Source of the DNA: an uncultured virus (IMG/VR IMGVR_UViG_3300020204_000044)
Taxonomy: Duplodnaviria > Heunggongvirae > Uroviricota > Caudoviricetes
Length of the DNA stretch: 20,000 bases
Direction: 5' to 3' (one strand)
IMG/VR virus record: IMGVR_UViG_3300020204_000044
The position numbers were made by a program, and so were the translations under genes. The notes under the pieces are model-generated. The model saw only the letters and a list, made by a program, of their open reading frames with translations. It did not search any database and had not been told where the DNA came from. Of this stretch, positions 4,371-15,900 are shown piece by piece. Within the stretch, counting starts at the first letter, position 1, and every line of letters starts with the position of its first letter.

Positions 4371-4967
4371 TTATGCCCCGAAGGCGATAGCGAATGCTGA
4401 AATTCTTGCGTCTACATAATCTTTTCTTGTGGCATGCGTACTCAATGATGGTGTATTGCCCAATGTTAAATCACCATCAACGCTCAGATCGTCAGTGATT
4501 GATGCATTTCCCTGCACAGACAATTCACCAGAACTATCCCCTGGGCCAACATTCAATGATGTAAAGTTTCCTGCTGCGGGATTTTGAAGACCGATTTCTA
4601 TATTGTCCATACGACCGACCGCAGCAAAACTTTCTATTTCTACGTGGCCATTGACCACACTGAAATACGGTGATGATCCCTGAGCGATTCTAAGATCTCC
4701 GTCAATGTTGAGAAATTCAAGTGTTCCTAATCTTGTGAGCGAACTACCTATGATCTGGCTGCCTAACGCTACCAATGATGATTCATCGAAATCCGCTTCT
4801 ATTAATTGTATATTTTTTACATATATCTGATCGGCACGCAGTATGCTTTCTTGGCCTTGGCCACCTACTTCTAATGCTCTGACCTGCACATTACCTAATT
4901 CGTCGACAGTAAATCCCGGACTACGAAAGCCGCTTTTAGACTCGAAAGGTATGTAATTTATTGACAT
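4371..4967 (-). CDS. Putative virion/tail-fibre-associated protein (198 aa)
   Basis: ORF with SD GCGGAGA. It has fibre-like LSVQGNASITDDLSVDGDLTLG repeats, a HATRKDYVD motif (the DA(A/T)xKxYVD type seen in phage fibres) and a hydrophobic C-terminus SAFAIAFGA. Confidence 0.65.
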   Translation of the reverse strand: MSINYIPFESKSGFRSPGFTVDELGNVQVRALEVGGQGQESILRADQIYVKNIQLIEADFDESSLVALGSQIIGSSLTRLGTLEFLNIDGDLRIAQGSSPYFSVVNGHVEIESFAAVGRMDNIEIGLQNPAAGNFTSLNVGPGDSSGELSVQGNASITDDLSVDGDLTLGNTPSLSTHATRKDYVDARISAFAIAFGA

Positions 4968-5017
4968 TTAGATCTCCGCTATCACACCAACAACGACTAC
5001 TACAAAGACTACGATAG

Positions 5018-5025
5018 TATTTAGT
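5018..5025 (-). promoter_or_regulatory. Putative T4-type late promoter (ACTAAATA)
   Basis: Minus strand reads ACTAAATACTAT in the intergenic gap, about 50 nt upstream of the 4967 ATG. It resembles the gp55-dependent TATAAATA consensus. Confidence 0.55.
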
Positions 5026-5036
5026 CTAGGTATCTG

Positions 5037-5474
5037 TTAATACTGTACTAGATTGTTTACGGTATAATAATAGTTCGCGCTGAATATCACCTTCGCTCCG
5101 GCCAATAACGTAGAATTATCATAGGTGCTGTCAGTAGGACTAGTAGCGCCTCTTATCGTGACCGTGCATTTTGATGCTGTTACTACTACATTTAGATCGA
5201 TTAGATTTTCATTGAGATTGGTTCTGCCATATACCGTGACTGCAGCAGACTCAGGACCCGCTACCACTAGTGCCTTGATCATTTCTTTTCTGGTATTGCC
5301 CGCATCTATGACTATGGTATATTCCGCAGACATAAAGTCTCCTACATAAAATTCGTCCAATACAGCATTTTCAGTGAACAGAATCCACGGGCCTTTATAG
5401 GAGAAATTTACTCCATTCTGCAATCGAAGAGTATTTTTTATACCCTGTAAGAAAAAGTTAGCGAAATTTAACAT
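5037..5474 (-). CDS. Small putative virion structural protein (145 aa)
   Basis: ORF containing a beta-rich SAEYTIVID..KEMIKALVV....AAVTVYG segment. This resembles the ~90-aa 'SA(K/E)Y...YG' domain recurrent in myovirus fibre and virion proteins (recalled, not searched). Confidence 0.55.
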   Translation of the reverse strand: MLNFANFFLQGIKNTLRLQNGVNFSYKGPWILFTENAVLDEFYVGDFMSAEYTIVIDAGNTRKEMIKALVVAGPESAAVTVYGRTNLNENLIDLNVVVTASKCTVTIRGATSPTDSTYDNSTLLAGAKVIFSANYYYTVNNLVQY

Positions 5475-5477
5475 AAG

Positions 5478-5515
5478 AGATCCGATCTATAGTGTATTTA
5501 CCATAGAGCGGATCT
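5478..5515 (-). promoter_or_regulatory. 13-bp hairpin with a late-type promoter (GGTAAATA, 5495-5502) in its loop, overlapping the RBS of the 5474 gene
   Basis: Arms 5478-5490 (agatccgatctat) and 5503-5515 (atagagcggatct) are reverse complements with one mismatch. The minus-strand loop is GGTAAATACACT, and the 3' arm ends 3 nt before the ATG. Confidence 0.65.
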
Positions 5516-5518
5516 TGT

Positions 5519-7351
5519 TTAGTTTGGTATTTTTACTAATTTACCGTACTCTGGAAGATAGAGATATTCGATATCGGATTTTTCCAGCGTCCACAGCGCA
5601 TCATCGAGAGTTTCCACTAAAGGCTCGCCACCGAGATTGAAACTGGTATTAAACACTATAGGAATTCCAGTTTCATCTTTGAAAGCCTTGATTAGATCGT
5701 GGTAGTGTGGATTCTGCTCTCTGTTAACTGTCTGTATGCGGCAGGTACCATCTTCATGTATGATCGAAGGAATCTTTTCGGCGATGCCCGGTTGGCAATT
5801 GACAGCATACATCATGAACGGTGAGTTTTTCATCCCTCTGAGGTCGAACCATTCGTGTACATCTTCTTCTAAGACAGATCCTGCGAACGGACGGAAGTAC
5901 TCTCTACGTTTGACCATATTGACATAATCTTTGCCGTCGGGGAATGTGGGATCAAACAGCACAGATCTATTACCCAATGCTCTAGGACCGTTTTCTGATC
6001 GACCTTGGAATATGGTCACGATATTCTTTTCACGTAGCAGTTTAACGATGTCTTTGTGTGCAGCATCGACAACTGTAGCGTCTTTGATCGCAGCAACCTT
6101 GCTTTCGATTTCTTCGTTGGTGTAACAATATGAAGGTCCGAGATACAGCGTGTCGTGTACACGGATAGTTTCATCATTTTGCATTCCGTACCAAAACATC
6201 AGAGCAGCGCCAATCGCGGTGCCTGCATCGTTCGAAATAGGTTCGACATAAAAATTGATGCCTTCTTTTTCGAGTTCTGCGAGATAATAATAATTGGCCA
6301 CGCAATTGAGTCCATATCCCCCGCTGAGCACGACATTTTTACGCCCTGTCCGTTTGACCGCGTCTTTGATCAATTTAAGTACCTGCTCCTGGGTCTGTGT
6401 CTGCACCGCGTAGGCCATGTCTCTCCGGCTCTGTAGATAAGTGACATCATCGCCGGGGGCCTGAGGCATTTCATCTAGCCCGTCGAACAGATATCCGTTA
6501 ACCATGGCACTCATTGGATACTTAGGAACAAATAAATTCCTGTTTGTTAAAGGAATCTTAGATGTCTCATCAAACAATGGTGGGATTTTATCGTTAGGTC
6601 TGCCGTAGGGAAACAGTCCCATGGTTTTTCCGGCCTCGATCGCTGAAAATCCGCAGTATTCTGTCACTGCTTCATAGGCCTTGACTATACCTGCATGGTC
6701 AGTGACCCATGCTTCGTGCGTATCACCGTCTTCTCCTAGATTGTTGCTAGGAAAATTAGACAGATACGCTCCAGCGATAGGCTCTTTGGTGCCGTAGTGT
6801 TTGTATAATGTTTTGAACTCTGCAGGATAATCACAGTTCACAATCGACTCAACTTCCCATACCCAGATCGGCATTTCGTTGTAAGACATCTGATAAAACG
6901 TTCCTGCTCCGTCAACCACTACGCTGACCGCATCTTTGAATCCGCTGCGATAAAAAGCGCAGGCAGAATGTAATTTATGATGCATGAAACTTAGATCGAT
7001 CACTTGCGGATGGCGATGCAGATCCTTGACCTTGCGATCTATGAGATTCAACTTTCTCGCTAGACCAGTATATACATCGTCACCTGTATAGTCTATCTTA
7101 CCAGCCGTTTCATAGAGATTCTGTGTATGCGCGATTATCAAATAATCTAGTTTATCTGTGTATTCTAAAATTTTAACCATCGAGGCCAATGGACCGCCAT
7201 CATATTTTTGGCGTGTGAATCTTTCCTCTTCGATGGCAAATACTATTTCGCCATCTTTGAGCAAACAAACGCCACTGTTATGCCCCCTAGCGATACCTGC
7301 TATCCAAACAGGTTTTTTCTCTTTTTTGATTTCGATAGTTTTAACTGTCAT
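5519..7351 (-). CDS. O-carbamoyltransferase, NodU/CmcH/TobZ family (Kae1-like plus YrdC-like domains), 610 aa
   Basis: Family motifs are present throughout: GHNSGVCLLKDGEIVFAIEEERFTRQK, HHKLHSACAF, VVVDGAG, GKTMGLFPYG, SGGYGLNCVAN, EPISNDAGTAIGAA, GRSENGPRALGNRS, KRREYFRPFA, SPFM, HEDGTCRIQTV, NTSFNLGGEPLVET. The start overlaps the upstream GT stop by 11 nt. Confidence 0.93.
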   Translation of the reverse strand: MTVKTIEIKKEKKPVWIAGIARGHNSGVCLLKDGEIVFAIEEERFTRQKYDGGPLASMVKILEYTDKLDYLIIAHTQNLYETAGKIDYTGDDVYTGLARKLNLIDRKVKDLHRHPQVIDLSFMHHKLHSACAFYRSGFKDAVSVVVDGAGTFYQMSYNEMPIWVWEVESIVNCDYPAEFKTLYKHYGTKEPIAGAYLSNFPSNNLGEDGDTHEAWVTDHAGIVKAYEAVTEYCGFSAIEAGKTMGLFPYGRPNDKIPPLFDETSKIPLTNRNLFVPKYPMSAMVNGYLFDGLDEMPQAPGDDVTYLQSRRDMAYAVQTQTQEQVLKLIKDAVKRTGRKNVVLSGGYGLNCVANYYYLAELEKEGINFYVEPISNDAGTAIGAALMFWYGMQNDETIRVHDTLYLGPSYCYTNEEIESKVAAIKDATVVDAAHKDIVKLLREKNIVTIFQGRSENGPRALGNRSVLFDPTFPDGKDYVNMVKRREYFRPFAGSVLEEDVHEWFDLRGMKNSPFMMYAVNCQPGIAEKIPSIIHEDGTCRIQTVNREQNPHYHDLIKAFKDETGIPIVFNTSFNLGGEPLVETLDDALWTLEKSDIEYLYLPEYGKLVKIPN

Positions 7352-8282
7352 CTCTTTTTCCTAGTACGTGTTCCACTACCAATGTGGTAATATCGTCATT
7401 CATCGTCATTATATTTTCATTTAGTCTATCCACACGTTCGTCTGGGAGAATGCGGATCGGACTGTACTCTCGACTCACCTCTCCCATATCTAGTATATCA
7501 AAATAATCGCAATCTGGATATGATACATTGATAGGATATGTCGATCCCGTGATAACTGTAGAAGGAGTTTCCATGATATAGGCTAGATGCTGTCCTAGGC
7601 TATCGCATCCAAGGAAATGCTGGGCATATTTGATGATCGCTGCCCAAATACGGAAATTGACATTTTCCGGCATGGCCACTTCATCTTTGAGTTTGGCGTC
7701 AGACAGATCTATCTTAAACTCGCTCATTAATATCACAGCAAAGTCTTTTTCTTGTAGTTTTTTTATGATCTGCTTGACATCTTTTAATTCGAAACTCCTT
7801 GCGGTTCTATCCACTAGAGTTTCGTCAATGTATTCGATACCTCGACCAAATGGCTGTAAAACTACTAACTTGTCTTTTTTGAGTTTCTGTTTAACCTGGC
7901 TCACTACCTGTCGACCATTCAATAGTTCATCTTTGCTGAGTCTGAACGTCGGTTTTGGTAATTCTCTGATGCCCTTGTCATTGATCTGTATATCAAAGGC
8001 CTGTGCGATAGAACACTGTTGATTATAATATTCCCAGATCCTGTAAGGTTCAGTGGTAACGATATCTCGATCGCGCAAATAATCTTTGAACAGTCCTTTA
8101 TGCCAAACATCATAAGTTCTGCTGTCTAAGGTAGGATGCCCTTTGAAAACATCTGTACCGCCTTCGCAGACGATGATAAAATCTCTATCTCCCGATTCTT
8201 CTTCGTACTTTTCGAATGCTGGAACAGATGTGATCATGCGGCCAGCGCCACCGTTTACGAAGAATGCTTTTGATCTGGTCAT
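7341..8282 (-). CDS. GT-B glycosyltransferase, GT9 (ADP-heptose heptosyltransferase)-like, 313 aa
   Basis: N-terminal FFVNGGAGRMITSVP, central LVVLQPFG and C-terminal AAIIKYAQHFLGCDSLGQHLAYIMETPSTVITGSTYP match the GT9 pattern (a.li..a..fig.DS...HlA.a...p.v.l.G.t.p). SD GGAG lies 6 nt before the ATG. Confidence 0.75.
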   Translation of the reverse strand: MTRSKAFFVNGGAGRMITSVPAFEKYEEESGDRDFIIVCEGGTDVFKGHPTLDSRTYDVWHKGLFKDYLRDRDIVTTEPYRIWEYYNQQCSIAQAFDIQINDKGIRELPKPTFRLSKDELLNGRQVVSQVKQKLKKDKLVVLQPFGRGIEYIDETLVDRTARSFELKDVKQIIKKLQEKDFAVILMSEFKIDLSDAKLKDEVAMPENVNFRIWAAIIKYAQHFLGCDSLGQHLAYIMETPSTVITGSTYPINVSYPDCDYFDILDMGEVSREYSPIRILPDERVDRLNENIMTMNDDITTLVVEHVLGKRDDS

Positions 8283-8296
8283 TTAAACTCCAATAA

Positions 8297-8349
8297 AAAA
8301 GGCCTTGTACAGATTATATATCCTCAGGGATAAATGTACAAGACCTTTT
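8297..8349 (-). terminator. Intrinsic terminator-like hairpin after the Cys-rich/chaperone operon
   Basis: Minus strand reads AAAAGGTCTTGTACA-(23 nt, with an inner TATCC/GGATA stem)-TGTACAAGGCCTTTTTT. This is a 15-bp inverted repeat with one G.U pair, followed by a U tract. The loop is unusually large. Confidence 0.6.
8313..8341 (-). promoter_or_regulatory. Sigma70-type promoter TTGTAC-N17-TATAAT for the GT/carbamoyltransferase pair
   Basis: Minus strand: -35 TTGTAC (8341-8336), a 17-nt spacer ATTTATCCCTGAGGATA, and a perfect -10 TATAAT (8318-8313), about 30 nt upstream of the GT ATG. Confidence 0.75.
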
Positions 8350-8359
8350 CTGGTTTAAA

Positions 8360-9004
8360 TTACAGTGGTGGTGTTGAGAGACAGTTTATCTTCCAATGAT
8401 CCACATTGGCATATTTTGTGGGTACAGATTCACAAAATTCGTAGTGTGTTTTGAATTTTTCTAGATCTGCTGCTAGATAATTACCGCTGTTATAGGCATC
8501 TCTGTATGTTTTTGCCTGTTGAGCCATAGATGCCAAGAAATCCTGCCTAGTAATGGCATGCACACGATATCTTGGGCGTATCCAAGTATTTGTTGGACGG
8601 TCGTAGCGGATATCATCGACGTAGAATGGCTGTGTTAAAGCACCGTTGAAGTCATCGTAGTTGTATTCCCAGGTTTCGCCGGTAGGCAGAGTTTCTCGAT
8701 AGTTTGGAACTTCACCATGCTCGTACTCGTTAGTGATGTGTGCTGCTTCCCAAGTATGGGTTTCGGCATCTAGCACGATCTGGAAAGTGTCACCATCGAG
8801 TGCCAGTTGTTCCTTAGTCATCTTAAAAGGCTCTAATTCTTCTGCGGTATCTGCTCGTCTTTCCAAGGCAAACATGGTTCCATCACCGTTCAAACGGATC
8901 AACAGGAATCGTCTACCGGTGTAGATACAATCTACTGTGATGTTTTTCTTGGTAGTGGTCTTGTATGGTTCGTCTGGAAGAACCGTTTTAAATGCTTTTC
9001 TCAT
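8360..9004 (-). CDS. Hypothetical protein, possible tail-fibre assembly chaperone or partner (214 aa)
   Basis: Its ATG abuts the upstream TAA, with SD GAGAGGGT. It is charged and soluble. The C-terminus HYEFCESVPTKYANVDHWKINCLSTPP loosely recalls Tfa-like chaperone tails (..P..y.....i.xP..P), and it lies directly after the fibre-like genes. Confidence 0.45.
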   Translation of the reverse strand: MRKAFKTVLPDEPYKTTTKKNITVDCIYTGRRFLLIRLNGDGTMFALERRADTAEELEPFKMTKEQLALDGDTFQIVLDAETHTWEAAHITNEYEHGEVPNYRETLPTGETWEYNYDDFNGALTQPFYVDDIRYDRPTNTWIRPRYRVHAITRQDFLASMAQQAKTYRDAYNSGNYLAADLEKFKTHYEFCESVPTKYANVDHWKINCLSTPPL

Positions 9005-10000
9005 TTATACCCTCTCGATAAAGTTTATTCTAATTAGTCCTAGGCCGCCTCGATACCCATTATCTCTGACATCGGGGCAGGGCTGCGCCGGTAAGCCACC
9101 CATGCCTGGAGGAATGAACGGCATACAACCAGTGACATCATAGCAACCGCAGGCTCTAGTATGTTGGCTGTAGCAGGCGGTCCATGGATTACCTCTAGCC
9201 GGGCTGCGGCTCATGGCGTTCAATGCGGAAATAAAATTGTGATAGCCCATGCCTGACCACTCTGAAAACCCGCTGTCTGAGTCTCGAGTGAACGTGACCA
9301 CACCTCCATCGCAGGCAAACATGCCTGGAGGAATAGCCACGTGATTGTGTGTGGCACAGGGGCATGAACTGCCATTAGTACCAAAGAATGTGGCGCAACT
9401 GAATCCGCCGCGCTTGTTTATGTCTCCACCATATGCTTCTGCGCAGCAAGAACCAGTACCTGAACCAAAGTTACAGATCATGCCCTGTGATCCACCGAAG
9501 TTGGTGTTGCAGTAGTTACCTGCGGTAAAGCAGCAGTAACCGCCCGTGCCCGTAGAGCACCATGTTACTCCGCCCCGTCCTCCCTGTGTGCAGATGCAGC
9601 CGTTTATGGCTGCACCTGTGTTTGGATTGCGACCGAACCAACAGACGCAGGACGCTTCTGAACAACCACGGAAGCATAAAGCGTCAGCATTGTTGCACGA
9701 TCTACCTACATATCCGCAGATAAAGTCTCCGGCGTTGACGCAGACGCATCTCCTGGCATAGGCGCCTGGATTTCCCGGTATGCCCATGCCGCAGCAGCAC
9801 ATACGAGCACCACTGCCCCCGGCCCCCCAGACATCTAAGATCACTTTTCCTTGACAGCAGGCGATCCAGCAGAAGCCATTGACAAAGTTAGCGTATTCCG
9901 TGCCTGGAGTGTAACTCCATATGCGGCCTTTTTCTAGATTGGTCTCGTCGAAATCGATCTGGTCTAGTTTTTGTTCTACCAATGTTCTTAAGTTAGCCAT
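9005..10000 (-). CDS. Cys/Gly-rich phage protein, paralog 3 (331 aa, about 32 Cys)
   Basis: Contains NLEKGRIW, WGAGGSGARMCCCG, GCICTQGGRGG, ACGCYD and PCPDVRDNGYRGGLGLIRI, and is collinear with the two upstream paralogs. Confidence 0.8.
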   Translation of the reverse strand: MANLRTLVEQKLDQIDFDETNLEKGRIWSYTPGTEYANFVNGFCWIACCQGKVILDVWGAGGSGARMCCCGMGIPGNPGAYARRCVCVNAGDFICGYVGRSCNNADALCFRGCSEASCVCWFGRNPNTGAAINGCICTQGGRGGVTWCSTGTGGYCCFTAGNYCNTNFGGSQGMICNFGSGTGSCCAEAYGGDINKRGGFSCATFFGTNGSSCPCATHNHVAIPPGMFACDGGVVTFTRDSDSGFSEWSGMGYHNFISALNAMSRSPARGNPWTACYSQHTRACGCYDVTGCMPFIPPGMGGLPAQPCPDVRDNGYRGGLGLIRINFIERV

Positions 10001-10001
10001 G

Positions 10002-10052
10002 TTATCTCGACCCGCCTCCTGTTGTTAAAAAATAGAATTTTGATTTGTCCAT
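10002..10052 (-). CDS. Putative 16-aa micro-ORF MDKSKFYFLTTGGGSR
   Basis: It exactly tiles the intergenic gap (TGA-t-ATG ... TAA-c-ATG) and contains the AGGAGG upstream of the 10000 start. There is no direct evidence of translation. Confidence 0.4.
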   Translation of the reverse strand: MDKSKFYFLTTGGGSR

Positions 10053-10053
10053 A

Positions 10054-11283
10054 TCAGTAACTGCTGCCCCCAGCGATAGGTATGAATTTGATGCGCACAG
10101 CACCCATACCGCCACGACCTGCGTGATCTCTAACGTTCGGGCAAGGATGTGGAGCTGCTCCAGGAACACCCACGGGCATGAAACTCATGCAGCCCTGCAT
10201 CTCATAGCAGCCGCAGGATCTCTGGTTGTTCCAGCAGGTATAGTGTTCGTTGTGGCTGGGTGATCGGCTCAAGGATTTCAGCGCATTGAAATGCACAGCC
10301 TGTGACGATCCCGACCAACCTCCCATGATGCTGTCGTCCGAGTATGAAGTATAGGTAAACGTGCCTCCATCTTCTGCGAACAGGCCTGCGGCCGTGGGCA
10401 CGTGATATTGGTACATACATGGGCAGGTCTGTAAGCAGGCATGGAACGACACGCAGCTCCACAGACCGCAGCAGTTGATGTCGCCGCCAAAACCGCAGGC
10501 CACGTTGTAGCCGTTCTGGCACCAATTGCAGATTATACCGCAGGCTGAGTTACCTGTATCGCACATGTTGTGTCCGGGTCCTAGACCCGTACCACAGAAA
10601 TAACCTGTTCTGAAACAAGAATAAGGTGATTTGGTATCCATACAGAACGATATGCCGCCTCGCCCTCCCTGTGCGCAGAGACAGCCGCGTGTGAAGTTGC
10701 CGCCTAATCTGCCCACGGTACAGCATCTACCCGTGCTGCAACAGAGTTCGCAGCCTTGGTTAGCACCTATCATGTTTGTACGATCGCCTCGTCCCTGGAT
10801 GGGACCGTTGGCTGTGCTGATCATATCTGAACCCTGCGAGCCCCATCCCCAGGGATTGCTGGGGACCTTGTCATCATACTCATCGGCACGCTGTCCGCCT
10901 TCGTTGAGATTGTGATGCGAGCAACCAAACCAGCACACGCAGGTGGCCTCTGAACAGCCACGGAAACACAGCGCTGAAGAGTTATTGCAGGAGCGTCCAA
11001 TGTAGCCACAGACGAAATTTCCCGATGCCACGCAGACGCATTTCCTTAGATACGCAGGGGCGTTACCTGGTGTACCTGCTCCGCAGCAGCACATCTGTGC
11101 TCCTGAACCAGCAGAACCCCATACATCGATCTGGATGAATCCGCAACCGGGCGCACGCCAGCAGAAACCATTACAGAATCCGGTGTACATAGTTCCTTCT
11201 TGATAGACCCAGATACGACCTTTTTCTAGATTATCCTCGAAAGCCAAATCTCTGCCACCTAGCAGTGTTGATAACTTTGCCAT
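10054..11283 (-). CDS. Cys/Gly-rich phage protein, paralog 2 (409 aa, about 41 Cys)
   Basis: Contains NLEKGRIW, WGSAGSGAQMCCCG, GCLCAQGGRGG, SCGCYE and PCPNVRDHAGRGGMGAVRI. It carries an internal segment of about 79 aa where the paralogs have about 10 aa. SD AGGAGG lies inside the end of the upstream gene. Confidence 0.8.
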   Translation of the reverse strand: MAKLSTLLGGRDLAFEDNLEKGRIWVYQEGTMYTGFCNGFCWRAPGCGFIQIDVWGSAGSGAQMCCCGAGTPGNAPAYLRKCVCVASGNFVCGYIGRSCNNSSALCFRGCSEATCVCWFGCSHHNLNEGGQRADEYDDKVPSNPWGWGSQGSDMISTANGPIQGRGDRTNMIGANQGCELCCSTGRCCTVGRLGGNFTRGCLCAQGGRGGISFCMDTKSPYSCFRTGYFCGTGLGPGHNMCDTGNSACGIICNWCQNGYNVACGFGGDINCCGLWSCVSFHACLQTCPCMYQYHVPTAAGLFAEDGGTFTYTSYSDDSIMGGWSGSSQAVHFNALKSLSRSPSHNEHYTCWNNQRSCGCYEMQGCMSFMPVGVPGAAPHPCPNVRDHAGRGGMGAVRIKFIPIAGGSSY

Positions 11284-11284
11284 A

Positions 11285-12304
11285 TCAGTACATACCTCCT
11301 AGTTTAGCACAGTTTTGGCCGTACATGTTAGTTCCTCTATAGGTCAATCTAATAGCGCCCATGCCACCTCGCTTGCCGTGGTCTCTGACATCTGGGCAGG
11401 GATAGGATCCAATGCCGCCCACGCCATAGGAATTGAACGGTATGCAGCCATACATTTCATAACAACCGCAGCTCTGTGTTGAAGAATAACAGGTGATCCA
11501 TGATATACCCGAAACCGGAGAACGGCTCAGGGCGTTCTGAGAATATTGATGCTGTAGCAGACCCGTGCCGCTCCATTGAGTGAATTCTGGATCTTCTTCT
11601 GGCAGAGACGATATCACGCCACCTTGATCGCTGAATATTCCTGGTGCGTAGGCCACGAACTGGTGTATGTAGCAGGGCCGAGGATTGCCCGTGTTACAGA
11701 AGAAATGCATGTAACTGATGCAGCCGCAGCAGTTGGTGTCACCGCCATAGCCACAGCCGATATGGCCACCGGAACATTGATTGCAGATGATACCACAACT
11801 GCTGCCAAACAGAGTGTGACAGAATCCTGCTGCTACGAAACAGCAGTACATGGCCGTGCTGGTCGAACAGATCGATGTGCCGCCTCGGCCTCCTTGTGCG
11901 CACATGCAGCCGTTTGAGTAGCCGCAGAGGTCTCGAGCGTTGCACCAGGCTAGATAACTAGCTAATCCGCAACCGCTGAAGCAGAGATCGTGTGCGTTAC
12001 AGGCCATACCTGGACAGGCACAGATCGCTGAGTTACAGAACACAGCCAAACATTTTCTCGTGTATCCGGGAGCATTTCCTGGTAGACCGCTACCGCAGCA
12101 GCACATGCGAGATCCACTACCTGCTGCTCCCCACATTTCTATTTCTAAGACACCACAGCCCGGAGATGCCCAGCACCAGTTCATATCTGATCGAATACAG
12201 GCGAACATACCACCGTTGGTCACGGTGTACACTCGGCCCTTCTCCAGATTTGTCTGGTTGGCCGCGATCTCTCTGGTGGATAGTAGATCAGTAAGTCTTG
12301 CCAT
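11285..12304 (-). CDS. Cys/Gly-rich phage protein, paralog 1 (339 aa, about 36 Cys)
   Basis: Contains NLEKGRVY, WGAAGSGSRMCCCG, GCMCAQGGRGG, SCGCYE and PCPDVRDHGKRGGMGAIRL. SD is AGGA. Confidence 0.8.
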   Translation of the reverse strand: MARLTDLLSTREIAANQTNLEKGRVYTVTNGGMFACIRSDMNWCWASPGCGVLEIEMWGAAGSGSRMCCCGSGLPGNAPGYTRKCLAVFCNSAICACPGMACNAHDLCFSGCGLASYLAWCNARDLCGYSNGCMCAQGGRGGTSICSTSTAMYCCFVAAGFCHTLFGSSCGIICNQCSGGHIGCGYGGDTNCCGCISYMHFFCNTGNPRPCYIHQFVAYAPGIFSDQGGVISSLPEEDPEFTQWSGTGLLQHQYSQNALSRSPVSGISWITCYSSTQSCGCYEMYGCIPFNSYGVGGIGSYPCPDVRDHGKRGGMGAIRLTYRGTNMYGQNCAKLGGMY

Positions 12305-12316
12305 TTTATTTTCCTA

Positions 12317-12643
12317 TTAGGGTCCGATAAAGACCCAACCAAATGTTACGCCCGAATAAATCATCGTTACAGCAGCGTTGTTCATGTCTAAAACTAAATT
12401 TTCTGTCAAGTTCTGGATCTTTTCTCCATTTCTCGCTATGGTTACATTGTTCGTAGCGAAAATCCCCGCGACATCGATGATTTGGATGGTATCCCCCACT
12501 ACTGGTGTAGCGGGCAGGGTGAGTGTAAATGCCCCCGAAGTGGCATTAGCGAATATTCTTTCACCTGCAGTAAGAGTGGCCGTGGCAGTCACGGTTCTGT
12601 TGGATACTGCATCGGTTCCGAAAGATGATACTTGTCGTCCCAT
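12317..12643 (-). CDS. Small tail-fibre-associated protein, T4 gp34 N-terminal-like domain (108 aa)
   Basis: ANATSGAFTLTLPATPVVGDTIQIIDVAGIFATNNVTIARNGEKI...VTMIYSGVTFGW resembles the repeated beta domain of proximal long tail fibres. SD is AGGAG. Confidence 0.65.
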   Translation of the reverse strand: MGRQVSSFGTDAVSNRTVTATATLTAGERIFANATSGAFTLTLPATPVVGDTIQIIDVAGIFATNNVTIARNGEKIQNLTENLVLDMNNAAVTMIYSGVTFGWVFIGP

Positions 12644-12657
12644 TTTATTCTCCTAAA

Positions 12658-12978
12658 TTATACTGTTGAAGTCTCTATACCATACGCATTCACTGATACG
12701 TTGGCATTGCTGGCGTATACTACGAGACGTTTGCCAGCGTCCATCATGATACCTGTTCGTTCTAACACCCCGTTAGATCCTATCTGAACATCATATTCGA
12801 TGTATTCTGCGTTTGTCGGACTCGCGCCTGCGGCTAAAGCGACTCTGACCGAAACTGCTGTGCTTCCTCGGTTCAGCACATTTATGCTCAGAACCGTAAA
12901 AGTAGTGGCAGGCACGGTATACACTGTTGTATTTGTTGTCGCTGCCAGTGTTGATTGACCTAATAATCCTGTTGCCAT
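12658..12978 (-). CDS. Small conserved phage virion or adaptor protein (106 aa)
   Basis: The pattern TTVYTVPA...SINVLNR...EYIEYDVQI...LERTGIMMDAGKRLVVYAS..VSVNAYGIE is common in myovirus tail clusters (recalled). SD is GGAG. Confidence 0.6.
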   Translation of the reverse strand: MATGLLGQSTLAATTNTTVYTVPATTFTVLSINVLNRGSTAVSVRVALAAGASPTNAEYIEYDVQIGSNGVLERTGIMMDAGKRLVVYASNANVSVNAYGIETSTV

Positions 12979-12991
12979 TTAAAATTCTCCA

Positions 12992-15900
12992 TTAATTTGC
13001 TTGTAAAAAGTAATTTAACACAAGGGCATCGCCTGCAATACCACCTTTGAAGTTTACCTTACTATTTATGTTAATTTGAACATTTGTCGTAGTGCTAATG
13101 GACTGTCCCGCCACATAAATCACACCCGCAGTCAAAGTATTCACGTTCAAACTAGATCCGCCTCCACCGATCTGGCTAGTAATATACGCCTTAATAGCCC
13201 GCTGTGTAGGAACCACAGAATCCGAATCTTGTGTAAAGAATGGATCTGTTGAAAATTCTGAGATCGTTGCACCTGACCCACCTAGCGCCACTGAGCCCAG
13301 CGAAAGTTCATTCAAACCTGCGATGTTGAAGGCATCTGCGTTCAAGGTCGCTACACCAGTGCTCTGTTCAACGTTAAACAGTCCACCTACACGGAAGTTA
13401 CCATCTTGGTCAGTTGAAGTATAGAACACTCGTCCGCCACCGCCAACTCTGGTCTCATTAGCAGGTATAGGATCGTTTAAAGGTAGTCCGGGATAATTAG
13501 ATTCTGTGAAATTACCGGTACCAATATCCAAGAAATCATGACCGGTCAGTCGAACCTGGCTGTATCGTCTGCGTATCGTCGTAGTCGTATCATGTTCTGG
13601 CGCTTCTGCAGCACCGATAGCAGGGCTCAATTGTAGGGTAGCATCGTATGTGCCATCTGGATTTGTCAAGAGCCCGGTAACGTTAACCAATCTATAGTAG
13701 ACGTCGTCGATACCTGCTATCTGCACATTGGAGCCCGCTTTGGGGATTCCTGTGAGGTTCTTGAACGATACAAATGCAGTGACCTGATAATTATCTGCGT
13801 AGCCGTTTCCAGCAACTTCTGCTGCTGCTGCTGTATAAAGAGTTCCTCTGTTAGTAAATGTTGGCTGTGCGATAACTCCGTTGCCTATCCTTACCTGTGT
13901 GGTAGCATCCGGACCTGTGTTATTTGGATCTGTGATAGTCAGCGTCGGTGCGGCGACATATCCAGAACCTGGTTCGTGTATCCAGATTTCAGTGATCAAC
14001 CCTTCGCCAGTGACTAATGATCGTGCTCTTGCCCGAGTACCTTGTCGTATGTTCAAGACTCCCTGTGAATTGCTGCCTATCACTACCCATCTCGGATACG
14101 ATTGATAATTTCCAAATGCCGATGCCACATAAGTCTTGCTGGTCAAGGCCAGCATGCTGCCTGATCCTGTGCTTAGAGCGAATGTAGATCCTCCGCTGGT
14201 TTCAGATATGCTGAATCTAGTGGCATCATAGATGCTATTGACAAAGTAAATCTTTCCTGAATCCGTACGGACTCCTCCGAATATTTCAGAACCTGATGAA
14301 TCACGGATGAATCTAACACGATCTCCTACATTCAGTCCGGTTGTCGTGCTGGTAGTAGTCAACCAGTTTACTTCAACAGCAAATTCCATGCTAGATGCCG
14401 TGGTAGTTGTCGAGGTAGCTAATGTGGCCACGGTATAGGTCGTAGTACCTGTTGAGGCCGCGGTAAACCAATCAGCAGTTGAACTCTGCGCTGGTCCTTC
14501 TATCCAAGTCACGCCGTTTGTAGAGTAGGCTGTTCTGTTACTGTTGTAGGCAAATGCCAAGAACGCTGTGCCTGTCCAAATAACTTTGATCCAACGTGCA
14601 GCAGCACCTGGCATGGTAGCCGCTGTCCAAGTTGTTCCGTTGGTACTGTATGCTGCCTTAGTTGTAGTAGTGGCTGTATTACCCGCTACTGCAACAAATC
14701 TGCTGTTACCGTAGGCCACAGAACTCCATAGATCTGAACTGGGCATAGAGTTAGCAGTGGTCCAGGTTGATGCACTGTTTGTAGAATGTGAAACTGCTTG
14801 GCTAGCTGATGCGCCGCCGCTTACTATGATATAATAAGTAGTTGCTCCGATAGCACCTACCGCGATACTGGTAGCATCTGACGAACCTCCTGATACAGCA
14901 GAACCAGTCCATGAAGTACCGTTTGCGCTTGTTGCTATATTAGCACTGTCTGCTCTGATTGCCACGTATTTAGAACCATCCCAGATTACCTGTTTCCAGA
15001 ATGAATTAGCAGGTAATGCATTGGCTGTGGTGCTCCAAGTAGTGCCGTTAGCAGAAGTAGCGATATCATTGTTACCACCGTTACCGCCAATCAGTGCCAC
15101 GTATTGATTGGTACCGTTATAGGCCAAACAGGTATATTCCCAGTTACCACCGGATTGAGCGATAGTCCCACCAGTCCAGGTCGCACCGTCGGTGCTGGTT
15201 GCGTATGCTCCGAGACTCGTAGCAGTAGTATAACCTATGGCTACGAATTTGCTTCCGTCCCAAAGGACATCTTGCCATGTGCTGGCACTAGGAAGTGTTC
15301 TGGCAGTAGTTGATGCTGGAATAGAGTTAGCATTAGTGCTGGTTATGTCTATAGGCAAGAAACTACCGTCACGTAGAGTCCAAGTAACCCCGTCAGGAGA
15401 ACTGGCAGCAGCGTCACCTAGGCTGGTGACATAGAATACGCCTTGACCGTAGGATATAGAACTCCACTCGCTGATCGATGGTAGATTGCTCTTATACCAA
15501 GTAGCACCGTTAAACGAATATGCTGCCATGGCAGAACTGTCTGCGATCGCAACAAATCGTCCGTTACCGTAGGCTATATCTACCCAGTTAGATTCCGAGG
15601 AGTCGTCATTGGCTGGAAGTGTGGTCACAGTCCAAGAGATTCCATTAGTGCTGTAAGCCACAGAATTTGAAAAATTACCTTCTACTAGGACGAATCTGCC
15701 ACCGCCATAGGCTATGGCTTTAGAGCCAGTGGCCACTGTAGCCGAGGTCCAAGTCGCACCGCCGTTGGTAGATGTTGATCTCCAAGTGGTGCTAGAATCG
15801 CTATCTGCTATGGCCACAAACGTTCCGTTACCTCCCACGACATCACTCCAGTCTTCGACCACTCCTAGCGATACTGAAGTCCAATTGATGCCATCGAACG

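Follow-up and report, generated by a model that had tools for sequence, protein, structure and literature searches.

The region analysed here is best explained as the module with which a giant T4-like phage recognises its host; in it, a GT-B glycosyltransferase (GT313) and an O-carbamoyltransferase (CT610) are kept together with three Cys-rich proteins that probably form fibre tips. A carbamoyl-heptose is well supported as the product of the enzyme pair, because the cassette is conserved and because two near-complete relatives carry an NDP-heptose operon, no other GT9 enzyme and no ThyA-type hydroxymethylase. We further propose, at slightly less than even chances, that the pair places this modified sugar on the phage's own host-recognition (fibre) proteins.

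An enzyme pair within a fibre module

The window (the whole 20,000-nucleotide stretch analysed) comes from a 37-kb contig of lake-water metagenomes whose near-complete relatives measure 353-364 kb and lack psbA; given this source and these relatives, the host need not be a cyanobacterium. Every gene in the block 5519-12304 lies on the minus strand, and the features are as follows.

12992..19915, minus: long tail-fibre protein, 2307 aa, heading the module; phrog_9851 (tail fibre, E 2.5e-70), also phrog_4527 and phrog_5342
12658..12978, minus: g106, small fibre-like protein; phrog_11338 and phrog_693, both tail fibre
12317..12643, minus: g108, small fibre-like protein; best match phrog_31104 (E 8e-23)
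11285..12304, minus: cysA, putative Cys/Gly-rich fibre-tip paralog, 339 aa, 36 Cys (10.6% Cys, 15.3% Gly); phrog_4205 (E 3e-7)
10054..11283, minus: cysB, putative Cys/Gly-rich fibre-tip paralog, 409 aa, 41 Cys (10.0%), with an insertion of ~70 aa
9005..10000, minus: cysC, putative Cys/Gly-rich fibre-tip paralog, 331 aa, 32 Cys (9.7%); predicted TNF-like plus glycine-rich-domain fold
8360..9004, minus: g214, 214 aa, fast-evolving, always beside the Cys-rich genes (78/78 relatives with enough upstream DNA)
8297..8349, minus: conserved stem-loop between g214 and GT313; MFE -29.8 kcal/mol, z -5.25
7341..8282, minus: GT313, GT-B glycosyltransferase of a divergent GT9-like (heptosyltransferase-like) clade, 313 aa; phrog_8954 (E 8e-135)
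5519..7351, minus: CT610, TobZ/NodU/CmcH-type O-carbamoyltransferase, 610 aa, Kae1-like and YrdC-like domains; phrog_1601 (1.4e-166)
5037..5474, minus: g145, conserved small protein after the enzyme pair; homolog after CT610 in most relatives
4371..4967, minus: g198, Gly-rich (11%); homolog after g145 in most relatives
3..4358, minus: large virion structural protein, N-terminal 1452 aa, extending past the window; phrog_5838 (E 1.3e-110)

The preliminary description had set the enzyme pair between virion genes, and the annotation agrees: the 2307-aa fibre and two fibre-like proteins of ~106 aa lie on one side, with g145, g198 and the phrog_5838 protein downstream. A large fibre ORF also occupies the position of the 2307-aa protein in relatives, the adjacency of g108 and g106 is conserved, and g106 homologs lie 5' of the Cys-rich genes wherever the DNA reaches, likewise in S-CAM1 and P-SSM2. 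Further, the 17 PHROG families that g108 matches describe for the most part segments of tails, fibres or spikes. Pfam and PHROG searches returned no family for g145 or g198; we read the latter as fibre-like from its composition and its position before a virion protein, the frame of which carries on into L006 (9740-11860). The module would then run from the long fibre through two small fibre-like proteins, three tips and a 214-aa partner to a translationally coupled enzyme pair, the genes of which overlap, as first described, by 11 nt (GT313 stop and CT610 start, 7341-7351).

Counted Cys contents of 9.7-10.6% match the figure of about 10% first given for the three paralogs, while the window's nine other proteins contain 0-1.4%. 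cysB and cysA are 50% and 45% identical to cysC, and 34 columns are invariant among 28 family members, of which 13 are Cys and 18 Gly. The AF2 model of cysC (pLDDT 71, pTM 0.74) gave the Pam3 fibre (7ypx, 7yfw; E 1.6e-5) as its best Foldseek matches, and by VIA it aligned with the Pam3 gp24 receptor-binding tip at Z 14.3 (rmsd 3.4 A, 191 residues), the Bxb1 tail tip at Z 11.3 and ALK/LTK glycine-rich domains at Z 7-10, all others falling below Z 5. The modelled fold therefore favours the fibre-type assignment made earlier, and suggests that the paralogs adopt, in Cys-rich form, the TNF-like plus glycine-rich fold of cyanophage Pam3 gp24 and serve as alternative or co-assembling receptor-binding tips. 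In Pam3, host recognition falls to the gp24 tip domain, and its chaperone is encoded by the gene that follows (PMC9608196). By position and by analogy to Pam3 gp25, g214 is a candidate fibre-assembly chaperone or adaptor; it had no Pfam family, matched only phrog_9740 (E 1e-3) in PHROG, gave Atlas leads that all scored < 0.9, and is 19-40% identical among loci whose glycosyltransferases are 56-72% identical.

The stem-loop between g214 and GT313 carries a ATATATAAT box in its loop (8313-8321) and is followed by a T-run and then by the GT313 ribosome site, GGAG. None of 200 shuffled sequences folded as well, and across 19 sequences each of the 12 predicted pairs is backed by compensatory double changes. 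The element is terminator-like and encloses the region's best sigma-70-like match (10 of 12), a possible internal promoter. With this hairpin and its -10-like box between them and the tip genes, the two enzyme genes may have a transcript of their own.

The enzymes and their probable chemistry

CT610 proved to be a complete enzyme of the NodU/TobZ type, as had been claimed, matching Carbam_trans_C (PF16861, E 8.5e-59) and Carbam_trans_N (PF02543, E 2e-28) in Pfam and 7xb6 (6e-53), NovN, GdmN and TobZ (~1e-46) among PDB homologs, with the family's signature motifs aligned. GT313 has no Pfam match of its own, even at E<=10, and its GT-B/GT9-like identity is thus invisible to a simple domain scan. 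Nevertheless, three approaches agree with the earlier reading of a GT9-like enzyme. Among 40 diverse representatives of its family, PF01075 is the sole recurrent Pfam family, found at E<=0.1 in 24 and reaching the cut-off in seven. The AF2 model (pLDDT 72, pTM 0.75) is nearest to GT9 heptosyltransferases, with 3tov best in Foldseek (GT9, E 3e-8), followed by WaaC, WaaF and TibC, and VIA Z scores of 11.7 for 3tov, 9.8 for TibC, 9.6 for WaaF and 9.4 for WaaC. Profile-profile comparison by hhalign with WaaC/WaaF/WaaU gave 91% probability, aligning GT313 162-251 with WaaC 192-285 and leaving the N-terminal domain of GT313 unaligned. In this alignment D227-S228...H232 of GT313 fall on D261-T262...H266 of WaaC, and R162 on K192; these four donor-side residues (D227, S228, H232, R162) vary little or not at all among 39 diverse relatives.

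Two features set GT313 apart. By register, Arg-15 appears to take the place of the catalytic Asp of WaaC (D13) and TibC (D110), with Arg in 35/39 family members, so that its chemistry or acceptor may differ from those of known GT9 enzymes. In addition, GT313 lacks both the beta-barrel and the iron finger with which TibC engages its protein substrate. No hydrophobic segment was found in GT313, CT610 or g214 (maximum 19-residue Kyte-Doolittle < 0.9); all three are predicted to be soluble and could meet fibre proteins in the cytoplasm.

As stated in the preliminary description, the window holds no hydroxymethylase or nucleotide-sugar gene, and the heptose operon was not seen in the 37-kb contig. 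Both near-complete relatives (353 and 364 kb; 98% and 100% complete), however, carry a five-gene NDP-heptose operon, comprising in G006 a cupin, a HAD phosphatase, a cytidylyltransferase-like protein, a PfkB kinase and an epimerase; neither G006 nor G010 has a PF01075 match besides the GT313 ortholog. The heptose kinase is present in 22 of the 23 GT313 phage records, the exception being a 4-kb fragment. Both steps have precedents: HepII of the Pseudomonas LPS core bears a carbamoyl group assigned to WapO (PMC8005017), and TibC works in the cytoplasm, attaching heptose to the adhesins TibA and AIDA-I (PMC4358343). The HepII precedent and the operon of the relatives support the suggested two-step chemistry; we infer heptose as the donor and the order of the two reactions.

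Conservation of the cassette

The samples comprised the best 80 of 571 (GT313) and the best 80 of 263 (Cys-rich) confirmed relatives, all from one phage group, so that shared ancestry inflates the counts; the 80 GT313 loci form 43 clusters at 90% GT identity. Among these best 80 of 571, CT610 lies downstream of GT313 in every locus (adjacent in 75), all 78 loci whose upstream DNA spans >=800 nt keep g214, and two or more Cys-rich genes occur in all 68 with enough upstream DNA. The proposed co-conservation of the pair with the Cys-rich genes and g214 thus extends to every scorable sampled relative. Even in a rearranged locus (L087), where enzymes and Cys-rich genes lie on opposite strands, they are neighbours. 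Conversely, both enzymes lie within 9 kb in 67 of the best 80 of 263 Cys-rich loci; of the other 13, four are cut off, and of the nine remaining contigs five were searched, four of which have both enzymes at another place. Within the phage collection, the 23 GT313 records are exactly the 23 best CT610 matches. Cys-rich homologs number three in S-CAM1, three in S-SSM7 and two in P-SSM2, phages for which the cassette genes were already listed as hypothetical proteins, a "Nol-like carbamoyltransferase" and "LPS genes".

Fibre proteins and other possible acceptors

The linkage to receptor-binding genes fits a receptor-modifying pair equally well. It is possible, though on the whole unlikely, that the pair works at the cytoplasmic face on a glycan of the host envelope, be it LPS core, O-chain or another surface polysaccharide, and gives it carbamoyl-heptose, either masking the receptor of the tips and keeping progeny from being wasted on infected cells or debris, or changing the surface for another reason; the enzymes would then travel with the tip genes because the specificities of receptor and adhesin have to agree. 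Phage T5 encodes the receptor blocker llp beside the receptor-binding pb5, a precedent for such an arrangement. The best-matching solved GT9 structures (3tov, WaaC, WaaF) are mostly LPS heptosyltransferases, and the conserved hairpin with its sigma-70-like -10 box, which separates the pair from the fibre genes, also favours this reading. The sole documented heptose carbamoylation known to us is that on LPS by Pseudomonas WapO (PMC8005017), and published work reads the cyanophage cassette genes as LPS or cell-wall modification genes (PMC3037559, PMC12801897). The heptose genes of S-SM2 and S-T4 sit in large polysaccharide-type clusters far from the fibres, in company with further glycosyltransferases and a putative membrane protein; yet these phages have neither GT313 nor a Cys-rich homolog, the enzyme pair tracking the Cys-rich genes and not the heptose genes. 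Moreover, the pair has no membrane, flippase or ligase gene beside it in any of the best 80 of 571 loci, and the GT313 clade was seen only in the phage cassette (10/10 loci found among 185,579 species genomes). Finally, marine Synechococcus WH8102 and CC9311, which are hosts of the cultured carriers' group, have an LPS with neither heptose nor Kdo (PMC4515613), and the classical WaaC/WaaF acceptor would therefore be absent there.

We give a small probability to the pair acting on something besides a virion protein or host glycan, such as a small glycoconjugate, soluble or linked to lipid, or a cofactor or ligand that the Cys-rich tips bind, or to GT313 having lost transferase activity and become a binding or assembly factor, with CT610 working alone, perhaps on a protein side chain in the manner of HypF, which S-carbamoylates a cysteine of HypE. 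The apparent Arg in place of the presumed catalytic Asp points this way, as does S-CAM8, in which a more distant carbamoyltransferase adjoins a 30%-Gly fibre-like protein without GT313. Known TobZ/NodU-type enzymes have small molecules or glycans as substrates, and none is known to modify a glycoprotein; the matched characterised relatives TobZ, NovN and GdmN all act on small molecules. On the other hand, the near-invariant donor-side motif argues for a working nucleotide-sugar site, and GT313 carriers retain the phage heptose pathway. A weak HypF_C_2 match of CT610 (E 1e-4, under the cut-off) would fit the HypF-like variant, but it reflects a common Kae1-like fold, the TobZ-type domains scoring far higher.

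DNA hypermodification, in which the pair would glycosylate and carbamoylate a hydroxymethylated base in the manner of T4 glucosyl-hmC, was raised as an alternative at the outset and is very improbable: although the DNA glucosyltransferases of T4 are of GT-B type, some phages are described as having carbamoylated bases, and other carbamoyltransferase clades adjoin thymidylate synthase in S-RIM44 and S-SCSM1, the latter clades are paralogs of 35-40% identity from phages that lack GT313, the modelled GT313 fold appears nearest to heptosyltransferases and not DNA glucosyltransferases, the pair lies inside the fibre module in 80/80 loci (best 80 of 571), and the ThyA family, to which dCMP and dUMP hydroxymethylases belong, is represented in neither near-complete relative.

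Returning to modification of the phage's own fibres, GT313 would take nucleotide-activated heptose from a five-gene phage pathway encoded elsewhere in the genome, as seen in relatives, and move it onto an acceptor in the cytoplasm. The YrdC-like domain of CT610 would form carbamoyl-adenylate from carbamoyl phosphate and ATP, and its Kae1-like domain would O-carbamoylate a heptose hydroxyl, as proposed for Pseudomonas HepII. The likeliest acceptor, in our view, would be a fibre protein of the phage itself, with the Cys-rich tips as first candidates and the neighbouring large fibre or virion proteins as second. Tips bearing carbamoyl-heptose would then leave the cell, and their decoration may tune stability or adsorption.

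Gene order and conservation of the cassette

The window corresponds to bases 11844-31843 of a 37.3-kb virus contig, and the stretch was present in 20 of the 23 runs listed, all of them lake-water metagenome DNA with no RNA run among them. The flanks of the contig encode tail sheath, tail tube and gp13-, gp14- and gp15-like proteins along with another fibre, and the contig is the tail region of a T4-like myovirus. All long open reading frames (ORFs) of the window lie on the minus strand. They are given below in reading direction; cysA, cysB and cysC are Cys-rich paralogs, GT313 is a 313-aa GT-B enzyme, CT610 is a predicted 610-aa O-carbamoyltransferase, and g214, g145 and g198 are small proteins named by their length.

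12992-19915 (-), tail fibre, 2307 aa, first in reading direction
12658-12978 and 12317-12643 (-), two proteins of ~106 aa with tail-fibre PHROG matches
11285-12304 (-), cysA, Cys-rich paralog
10054-11283 (-), cysB, Cys-rich paralog
9005-10000 (-), cysC, Cys-rich paralog
8360-9004 (-), g214
7341-8282 (-), GT313
5519-7351 (-), CT610
downstream of CT610 (-), g145, then g198
3-4358 (-), virion structural protein, first 1452 aa, last in reading direction

The 11-nt overlap of GT313 and CT610 reported in the preliminary description was confirmed, and the other gene junctions are mostly 0-14 nt. Across cysA-cysC (window 9000-12300) the G+C content is 52-54%, against 40-46% in neighbouring genes, a rise that probably reflects Gly/Cys codon content and not foreign origin. 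A megablast search with positions 5000-13000 yielded no match among 50,697 phage records. In the virion structural protein (3-4358, -), residues ~1000-1250 carry a repeated S-x-D/N-G-x-x-W with a weak BNR/Asp-box match (E 5e-4, under the cut-off), which suggests that a sialidase-like beta-propeller lies inside this large protein.

GT313 matched 23 phage records, including S-CAM1, S-CAM3, S-SSM7/S-SSM6a, Sf-FS3, P-SSM2 and P-SSM5 as well as four single-cell virus contigs. The 23 best matches of CT610 (44.5-62.7% identity) fell in these same records; the other 113 CT610-matching records encode more distant carbamoyltransferases and are without GT313. Our survey of IMG/VR covers the best 80 (57-100% identity, in 43 clusters at 90%) of the 571 stretches that encode a GT313 relative.

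Gene content around GT313 relatives in the best 80 of 571 IMG/VR stretches
CT610 downstream of GT313: 80/80
CT610 adjacent to GT313: 75/80; the remaining 5 have one extra ORF of ~290-306 aa
g214 present: 78/78 loci with at least 800 nt upstream
At least two Cys-rich ORFs: 68/68 loci with at least 4 kb upstream
Second GT313 paralog after CT610: 9/80
Heptose genes within 8 kb: 5/80

The enzyme pair (GT313 and CT610) and the Cys-rich genes, which the preliminary description had placed in one system, are indeed conserved together (80/80 for CT610, 68/68 for at least two Cys-rich ORFs), in counts that represent nearest relatives and common ancestry, not independent events. Linkage beyond inertia is indicated by locus L087, in which the enzymes and the Cys-rich genes are inverted relative to each other yet still neighbours, and by the block itself, which in several cyanomyovirus genera is either present or absent as a whole. 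The reverse search, from the Cys-rich family (best 80 examined of 263 confirmed members), showed GT313 and CT610 within 9 kb at 67 of the 80 loci, and 4 more run off the contig end. A lone extra Cys-rich copy occurred elsewhere in 9/80; when five such contigs were searched, four carried GT313 and CT610 elsewhere, and in the fifth the Cys-rich locus lies at the contig end. Close GT313 relatives in 185,579 species genomes amounted to 10 loci, all with the phage cassette and with unrelated MAG labels. These contigs (L172-L181, one of 335 kb) come from MAGs that bear the labels Chitinophagales, Neomarinimicrobiota, Methanobacteriota, Flavobacteriales, Crocinitomicaceae and Yoonia; in all likelihood they are of phage origin and were wrongly binned into cellular genomes.

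Two variants of the gene order were seen. The order GT-CT-GT occurs in L072-L074, L076, L078, L081, L083, L084 and L086 (~10.7-11.7 kb in each), the second GT313 paralog being ~53-54% identical to GT313 of the window. An extra ORF of ~287-306 aa lies between GT and CT in L059, L064, L075, L077 and L087, and also in L172 and L173; it belonged to no Pfam family in the four scanned (L059, L077, L087, L172) and may be a further tailoring enzyme.

The counterpart of the cassette in cultured phages, carried by P-SSM2, S-SSM7, S-CAM1 and S-CAM3, is T4-GC 297-303 with the adjoining "LPS genes" T4-GC 304-308 (P-SSM2 PSSM2_302-313, S-SSM7 SSSM7_114-133, S-CAM1 SXBG_00228-00216). In P-SSM2, S-SSM7 and S-CAM1 the order is that of the window: tail fibre, two small proteins, two or three Cys-rich proteins (8.4-11.6% Cys), one low-Cys protein of ~220-270 aa, a homolog of GT313 (40-54% identity) and a "Nol-like carbamoyltransferase" with 48-63% identity. 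Heptose genes directly follow the carbamoyltransferase in those cyanophages, whereas in the window this place is taken by g145, g198 and the virion protein, and in the window's near-complete relatives 12-90 kb separate the heptose operon from the cassette. GenBank records give the GT and Cys-rich genes as "hypothetical protein", and Sullivan 2010 treats the sugar genes as LPS genes without an assigned use or as "stuffer DNA" (PMC3037559). In the accessible text of the literature, we found no paper that describes T4-GC 302 as GT9-like, recognizes Pam3-type tips in the Cys-rich genes, or treats the block as one unit. Likewise, titles and abstracts, with most subscription journals outside coverage, yielded no paper on a phage heptosyltransferase acting on virions or fibres. 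The cassette genes are thus already known as hypothetical proteins, a "Nol-like carbamoyltransferase" and "LPS genes", and the subject is related to phage virion glycosylation, adhesin heptosylation and heptose carbamoylation.

Predicted fibre tips and g214

Three paralogs with about 10% Cys had been claimed, and the composition agrees: cysteine accounts for 36 of 339 residues in cysA (10.6%), 41 of 409 in cysB (10.0%) and 32 of 331 in cysC (9.7%), with 15-17% Gly, while the remaining nine window proteins contain 0-1.4% Cys. Identity to cysC is 50% for cysB and 45% for cysA, and an alignment of 28 family members has 34 invariant columns (13 Cys, 18 Gly and 3 Asn). No Pfam family was found for cysA, cysB or cysC; two of the three matched PHROG 4205 (function unassigned). 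A tblastn search with cysC against the phage collection returned nothing at E<=1e-5, though PHROG 4205 and its family search show homologs there, and we take this miss as an effect of sensitivity or of the composition filter, not as absence.

The AlphaFold model of cysC (28 sequences, pLDDT 71, pTM 0.74), the single model on which the fold comparison rests, has a TNF-like sandwich with a glycine-rich lattice cap.

Structural matches of the cysC model
Cyanophage Pam3 fibre gp24: Foldseek E 1.6e-5; VIA Z 14.3, rmsd 3.4 A, 191 residues
Mycobacteriophage Bxb1 tail-tip chain: Z 11.3
ALK/LTK glycine-rich domains: Z 7-10
All other folds: below Z 5

The match to gp24, which covers its residues 76-278 at 17% identity, supports the earlier "fibre-type" label of the Cys-rich paralogs, as judged from the cysC model. 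In Pam3, the part that is TNF-like and rich in glycine is the fibre's receptor-binding end, and gp25, encoded next after gp24, is an assembly chaperone that is absent from virions (PMC9608196); gp25 is trimeric and has relatives among tail-fibre-assembly proteins. The window and Pam3 (gp24/gp25; PDB 7ypx, 7yfw) have in common the TNF-like plus glycine-rich fold, a short N-terminal helix, and a small gene directly after the fibre gene. They differ in that the window proteins contain ~10% Cys, with 13 invariant cysteines, and form three tandem paralogs where Pam3 has one fibre, and in that g214 is without detected similarity to gp25 or to tail-fibre-assembly families. The cysteine load is an unusual feature of these predicted fibre tips. 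We know of no sugar enzymes linked to the Pam3 genes.

The small protein g214 belonged to no Pfam family and no solid PHROG family, and an Atlas look-up gave weak leads, all below 0.9. It occupies a position like that of Pam3 gp25 in 78/78 loci with at least 800 nt upstream (best 80 of 571), and always accompanies Cys-rich genes; in P-SSM2 and some metagenomic loci it lies between them or is duplicated. Its identity is 19-40% across loci in which GT313 is 56-72% identical, and such fast evolution fits a chaperone or adaptor co-evolving with the tips, the role that we infer for it. Published cyanomyovirus virion proteomes are those of S-SM1, S-PM2 and Syn9 (PMC3037559); none of these is among the 23 GT313-matching records, and the cassette is missing from the proteome-analysed phages.

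The enzyme pair and its upstream hairpin

CT610 matched both PF02543 (Carbam_trans_N, the N-terminal Kae1/ASKHA-like domain; 100.3 bits, cut-off 24, E 2e-28) and PF16861 (Carbam_trans_C, the C-terminal YrdC-like domain; 198.3 bits, cut-off 27, E 8.5e-59, profile 2-166 of 170), and with both domains far over their cut-offs the proposed NodU/TobZ carbamoyltransferase stands. Homology to solved enzymes extends along its length (7xb6 6e-53, NovN 6e-48, GdmN 4e-47, TobZ ~1e-46), and the motifs GH(N/D), HHxxH, GPRALGNRS, FRPFA and NTSFN align to the TobZ/NodU/CmcH family. In its domains, homology and motifs CT610 thus has the sequence characteristics of a TobZ/NodU/CmcH O-carbamoyltransferase, and we predict this activity for it, with carbamoyl phosphate and ATP serving to carbamoylate a hydroxyl.

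Other carbamoyltransferases were found in different surroundings. In S-CAM8 (L182, NC_021530.1 26519-38090), a carbamoyltransferase 40% identical to CT610 lies in the tail-fibre region, end to end with a 393-aa fibre-like protein (30% Gly) and adjoined by four 2OG-Fe(II) oxygenase genes; among its neighbours we found neither GT313 nor any Cys-rich gene. An association of carbamoyltransferases with glycine-rich fibre proteins may extend beyond this cassette. In S-RIM44 (L183) and S-SCSM1 (L184), paralogs annotated as split into two to four ORFs come immediately after the thymidylate synthase ThyX and precede phoH, a non-structural context that hints at a different substrate for this clade. Further, 2OG-Fe(II) oxygenases, a second carbamoyltransferase and a tryptophan halogenase lie between the enzyme pair and the heptose genes in S-SSM7 (L002, 15043-22033) and L082 (11679-12888), and may represent further tailoring activities.

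The description of GT313 as a GT9-like GT-B enzyme was borne out by fold, profile-profile alignment and transitive Pfam matches, but not by any PF01075 match of the window protein itself, for which no Pfam family matched even at E<=10, PF01075 included. Searches of PDB sequences, with either the single sequence or a 19-sequence profile, gave no meaningful match; the link to GT9 came from fold and profile-profile comparison only. PHROG 8954 (function unassigned) matched at E 8e-135. The GT313 model (19 sequences, pLDDT 72, moderate confidence, pTM 0.75) has the two-Rossmann GT-B fold. Its Foldseek matches were 3tov (GT9; E 3.4e-8), WaaC (1e-5), WaaF (2e-5) and TibC (3e-4), and VIA Z was 11.7 for 3tov, 9.8 for TibC, 9.6 for WaaF and 9.4 for WaaC, a modest margin over the 8-9 of other GT-B families. 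A profile search of 1.84 billion representatives gave 586 relatives at E<=1e-3; among 40 diverse full-length relatives, PF01075 was matched by 24 at E<=0.1 and by 7 at the cut-off (22 bits or more), and no other Pfam family recurred. The orthologs in G010 and G006, two near-complete relative genomes, scored 33.7 and 15.4 bits, respectively, and the JGI name "ADP-heptose:LPS heptosyltransferase" is attached to 4 of the 120 close homologs listed.

When compared with E. coli WaaC/WaaF/WaaU by hhalign (91% probability, E 1e-6), GT313 162-251 aligned on WaaC 192-285, pairing R162 with K192, D227-S228 with D261-T262, and H232 with H266. D227, S228 and H232 are invariant in 39/39 GT313 relatives, and R162 is present in 38/39; in WaaC, K192, D261-T262-G263 and H266 form the C-terminal nucleotide-heptose binding motif. 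The N-terminal domain lies outside this alignment, and its register comes from the motif and the start of the structural alignment. In this inferred register, "...MGD" of WaaC and "...VGD" of WaaF, which hold the catalytic Asp (D13 in WaaC), would correspond to "GGAGR" of GT313, with Arg in 35/39 relatives; D or N occupies position 10 of GT313 in 31/39.

Compared with WaaC/WaaF (2gt1, 2h1h, 1psw; 3tov), GT313 has in common the GT-B fold, the D-S/T-G...H donor motif and a basic residue at the K192 position, and differs in its missing PF01075 match and its apparent "G-R" N-terminal motif; the GT313 loci found lie in the phage cassette only, none in an LPS core operon. TibC/AAH is a cytoplasmic heptosyltransferase encoded beside the adhesin that it modifies (PDB 4rap, 4rb4; PMC4358343). 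The catalytic domain compares with TibC at the Z of 9.8, GT313 1-311 lying on TibC 92-391, but 313 aa leave no space for the N-terminal beta-barrel that TibC needs for activity (residues 1-97; PMC4358343). The four-Cys iron finger of TibC, which accompanies a beta-hairpin thumb for the dodecamer, is also missing (GT313 has 4 Cys in total, none family-conserved, and position 226 is C, I or V), and by register there is no Asp at the position of TibC D110, the catalytic Asp equivalent, whose D110A variant is inactive (PMC4358343). The putative substrates differ as well, being glycine-lattice fibre tips in the window and beta-helical autotransporters for TibC/AAH. Because it is without the beta-barrel and the iron finger and appears to have "G-R" for "G-D", GT313 was kept out of the TibC family and is filed, as far as sequence and model indicate, as a putative divergent GT9-like clade. 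No membrane-like segment was found in either GT313 or CT610.

The 77-nt gap between g214 and GT313 (window 8283-8359, -) contains a long stem-loop (-29.8 kcal/mol, z -5.25), with compensatory double changes in all 12 consensus pairs across 19 diverse loci; in L009-L077, too, it lies between the g214 and GT313 homologs. An ATA-n-ATA box is kept in the loop (ATATATAAT in the window), followed by a T-run and by the GGAG site of GT313. This hairpin resembles a terminator of the fibre-tip genes, and its loop may hold a start signal for the enzyme pair. As a general promoter motif, ATATATAAT was rejected for want of enrichment: allowing 1 mismatch, the window has 6 matches where 8.9 are expected. 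A single copy of the T4-type late motif NATAAATA lies on the coding strand (13063-13070), and none precedes GT313. In its accessible part, the expression paper on P-SSM2 reports measurements of cobS, psbA and gp22 only (PMC6628666).

Sugar supply, acceptor and significance

After the carbamoyltransferase, S-CAM1, S-SSM7 and P-SSM2 carry genes annotated as heptose kinase/adenylyltransferase, carbohydrate kinase, "phosphoheptose isomerase", "cysteine dioxygenase" (cupin) and nucleotide-sugar epimerase; the window has no heptose genes after its carbamoyltransferase. Its lineage is a jumbo phage of ~353-364 kb with T4-like tail genes and no psbA (G006 and G010, via L010 and L049; L169): psbA was found in 0/3 relatives, which are of lake origin. 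G006 (353 kb, 98% complete by CheckV, GT 84% identical; G010 is 364 kb and 100% complete) has an operon encoding a cupin, a HAD phosphatase, a cytidylyltransferase-like protein, a PfkB kinase and an NAD-dependent epimerase, which reads as a full NDP-heptose route in which the cupin would stand in the isomerase's place. Encoded beside the operon are a ClpP protease, an FkbM-type methyltransferase, a class I/II aminotransferase, and a collagen-repeat protein of >2135 aa. Neither G006 nor G010 has a PF01075 match other than its GT313 ortholog.

Heptose kinase was found in 35 records of the phage collection, including 22 of the 23 GT313 records (the one without it being a 4-kb fragment). Records with the kinase but no GT313 are those of S-SM2, S-T4, P-TIM68, Sf-CH5/8 and one single-cell contig, and in S-SM2 and S-T4 the kinase lies in large polysaccharide-type clusters. 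Homologs of PHROG 4205 number three in S-CAM1, three in S-SSM7 and two in P-SSM2, with none in S-SM2 and S-T4. From these distributions, GT313 implies the heptose pathway, and the Cys-rich tips track GT313, not the pathway. The heptose operon in relatives and the co-occurrence of the kinase make ADP-heptose a candidate donor for GT313.

We give fibre proteins slightly less than an even chance of being the acceptor. The full sequence of events, in which the phage heptosylates its own Cys-rich fibre tips and then carbamoylates the sugar, is a tentative proposal that we place somewhat below an even chance. Self-decoration of the fibre is argued for by the strict linkage to adhesin-type genes, by the solubility of the enzymes, and by the precedent of TibC, in which an adhesin is heptosylated by the product of a neighbouring gene. 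In the marine relatives, it is also argued for by host LPS that contains neither heptose nor Kdo (PMC4515613), which removes the classical GT9 acceptor. This LPS argument is limited to the marine relatives and is not transferable to the window's own phage, because its relatives are without psbA (0/3) and come from lakes, and its host need not be a cyanobacterium. If Arg does replace the catalytic Asp, the acceptor might be something other than a hydroxyl, such as a cysteine thiolate in the 10%-Cys proteins.

That the enzymes instead modify the host surface or receptor is less likely, but several observations speak for it. Carbamoylation of heptose has its precedent on LPS, since the carbamoyl group of Pseudomonas HepII is assigned to the putative NodU-type WapO (PA5005) (PMC8005017). 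Pseudomonas thus shares with the window the combination of heptosyltransferases (WaaC/WaaF) and a NodU-type carbamoyltransferase; there it is a chromosomal LPS pathway with a Kdo-lipid A acceptor, whereas the pair in the window is phage-borne and fibre-linked. The published reading of the genes is as LPS or cell-wall genes (PMC3037559, PMC12801897), the heptose genes of S-SM2 and S-T4 have a polysaccharide-cluster context, and the conserved hairpin separates the enzyme pair from the fibre genes. Another product, or a non-catalytic GT, is improbable. DNA modification is very improbable, given that PF00303 (the ThyA family, to which dCMP and dUMP hydroxymethylases belong) was found in 0/2 near-complete relatives (G006 and G010) against 10/14 reference genomes as control, and that the nearest folds are heptosyltransferases.

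To our knowledge, phage protein glycosylation is documented mainly for mycobacteriophage capsids and tail tubes. In mycobacteriophages, glycosyltransferases encoded near structural genes reportedly glycosylate virion proteins, as Freeman et al. are said to have found in 2023, with other GT families, sugars and targets (capsid, tail tube) and with neither heptose nor carbamoylation. Self-decoration of fibre tips, if true, would provide the first heptose- and carbamoyl-bearing virion protein and a new class of phage protein glycosylation. The "LPS genes" and "Nol-like carbamoyltransferase" of large cyanophages would then serve to decorate the phage's own adsorption organ, not to remodel the host surface, and a definite function would fall to genes that abundant phages of oceans and lakes carry and that have passed since 2005 for "LPS genes", possibly "stuffer DNA". 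If the enzymes instead mask the host receptor, the cassette would be a system for receptor editing with a genetic tie to the adhesins that it serves. As tail-fibre tips decide which cells can be infected, sugar and carbamoyl groups on these tips would add a new layer of control over host range and stability.
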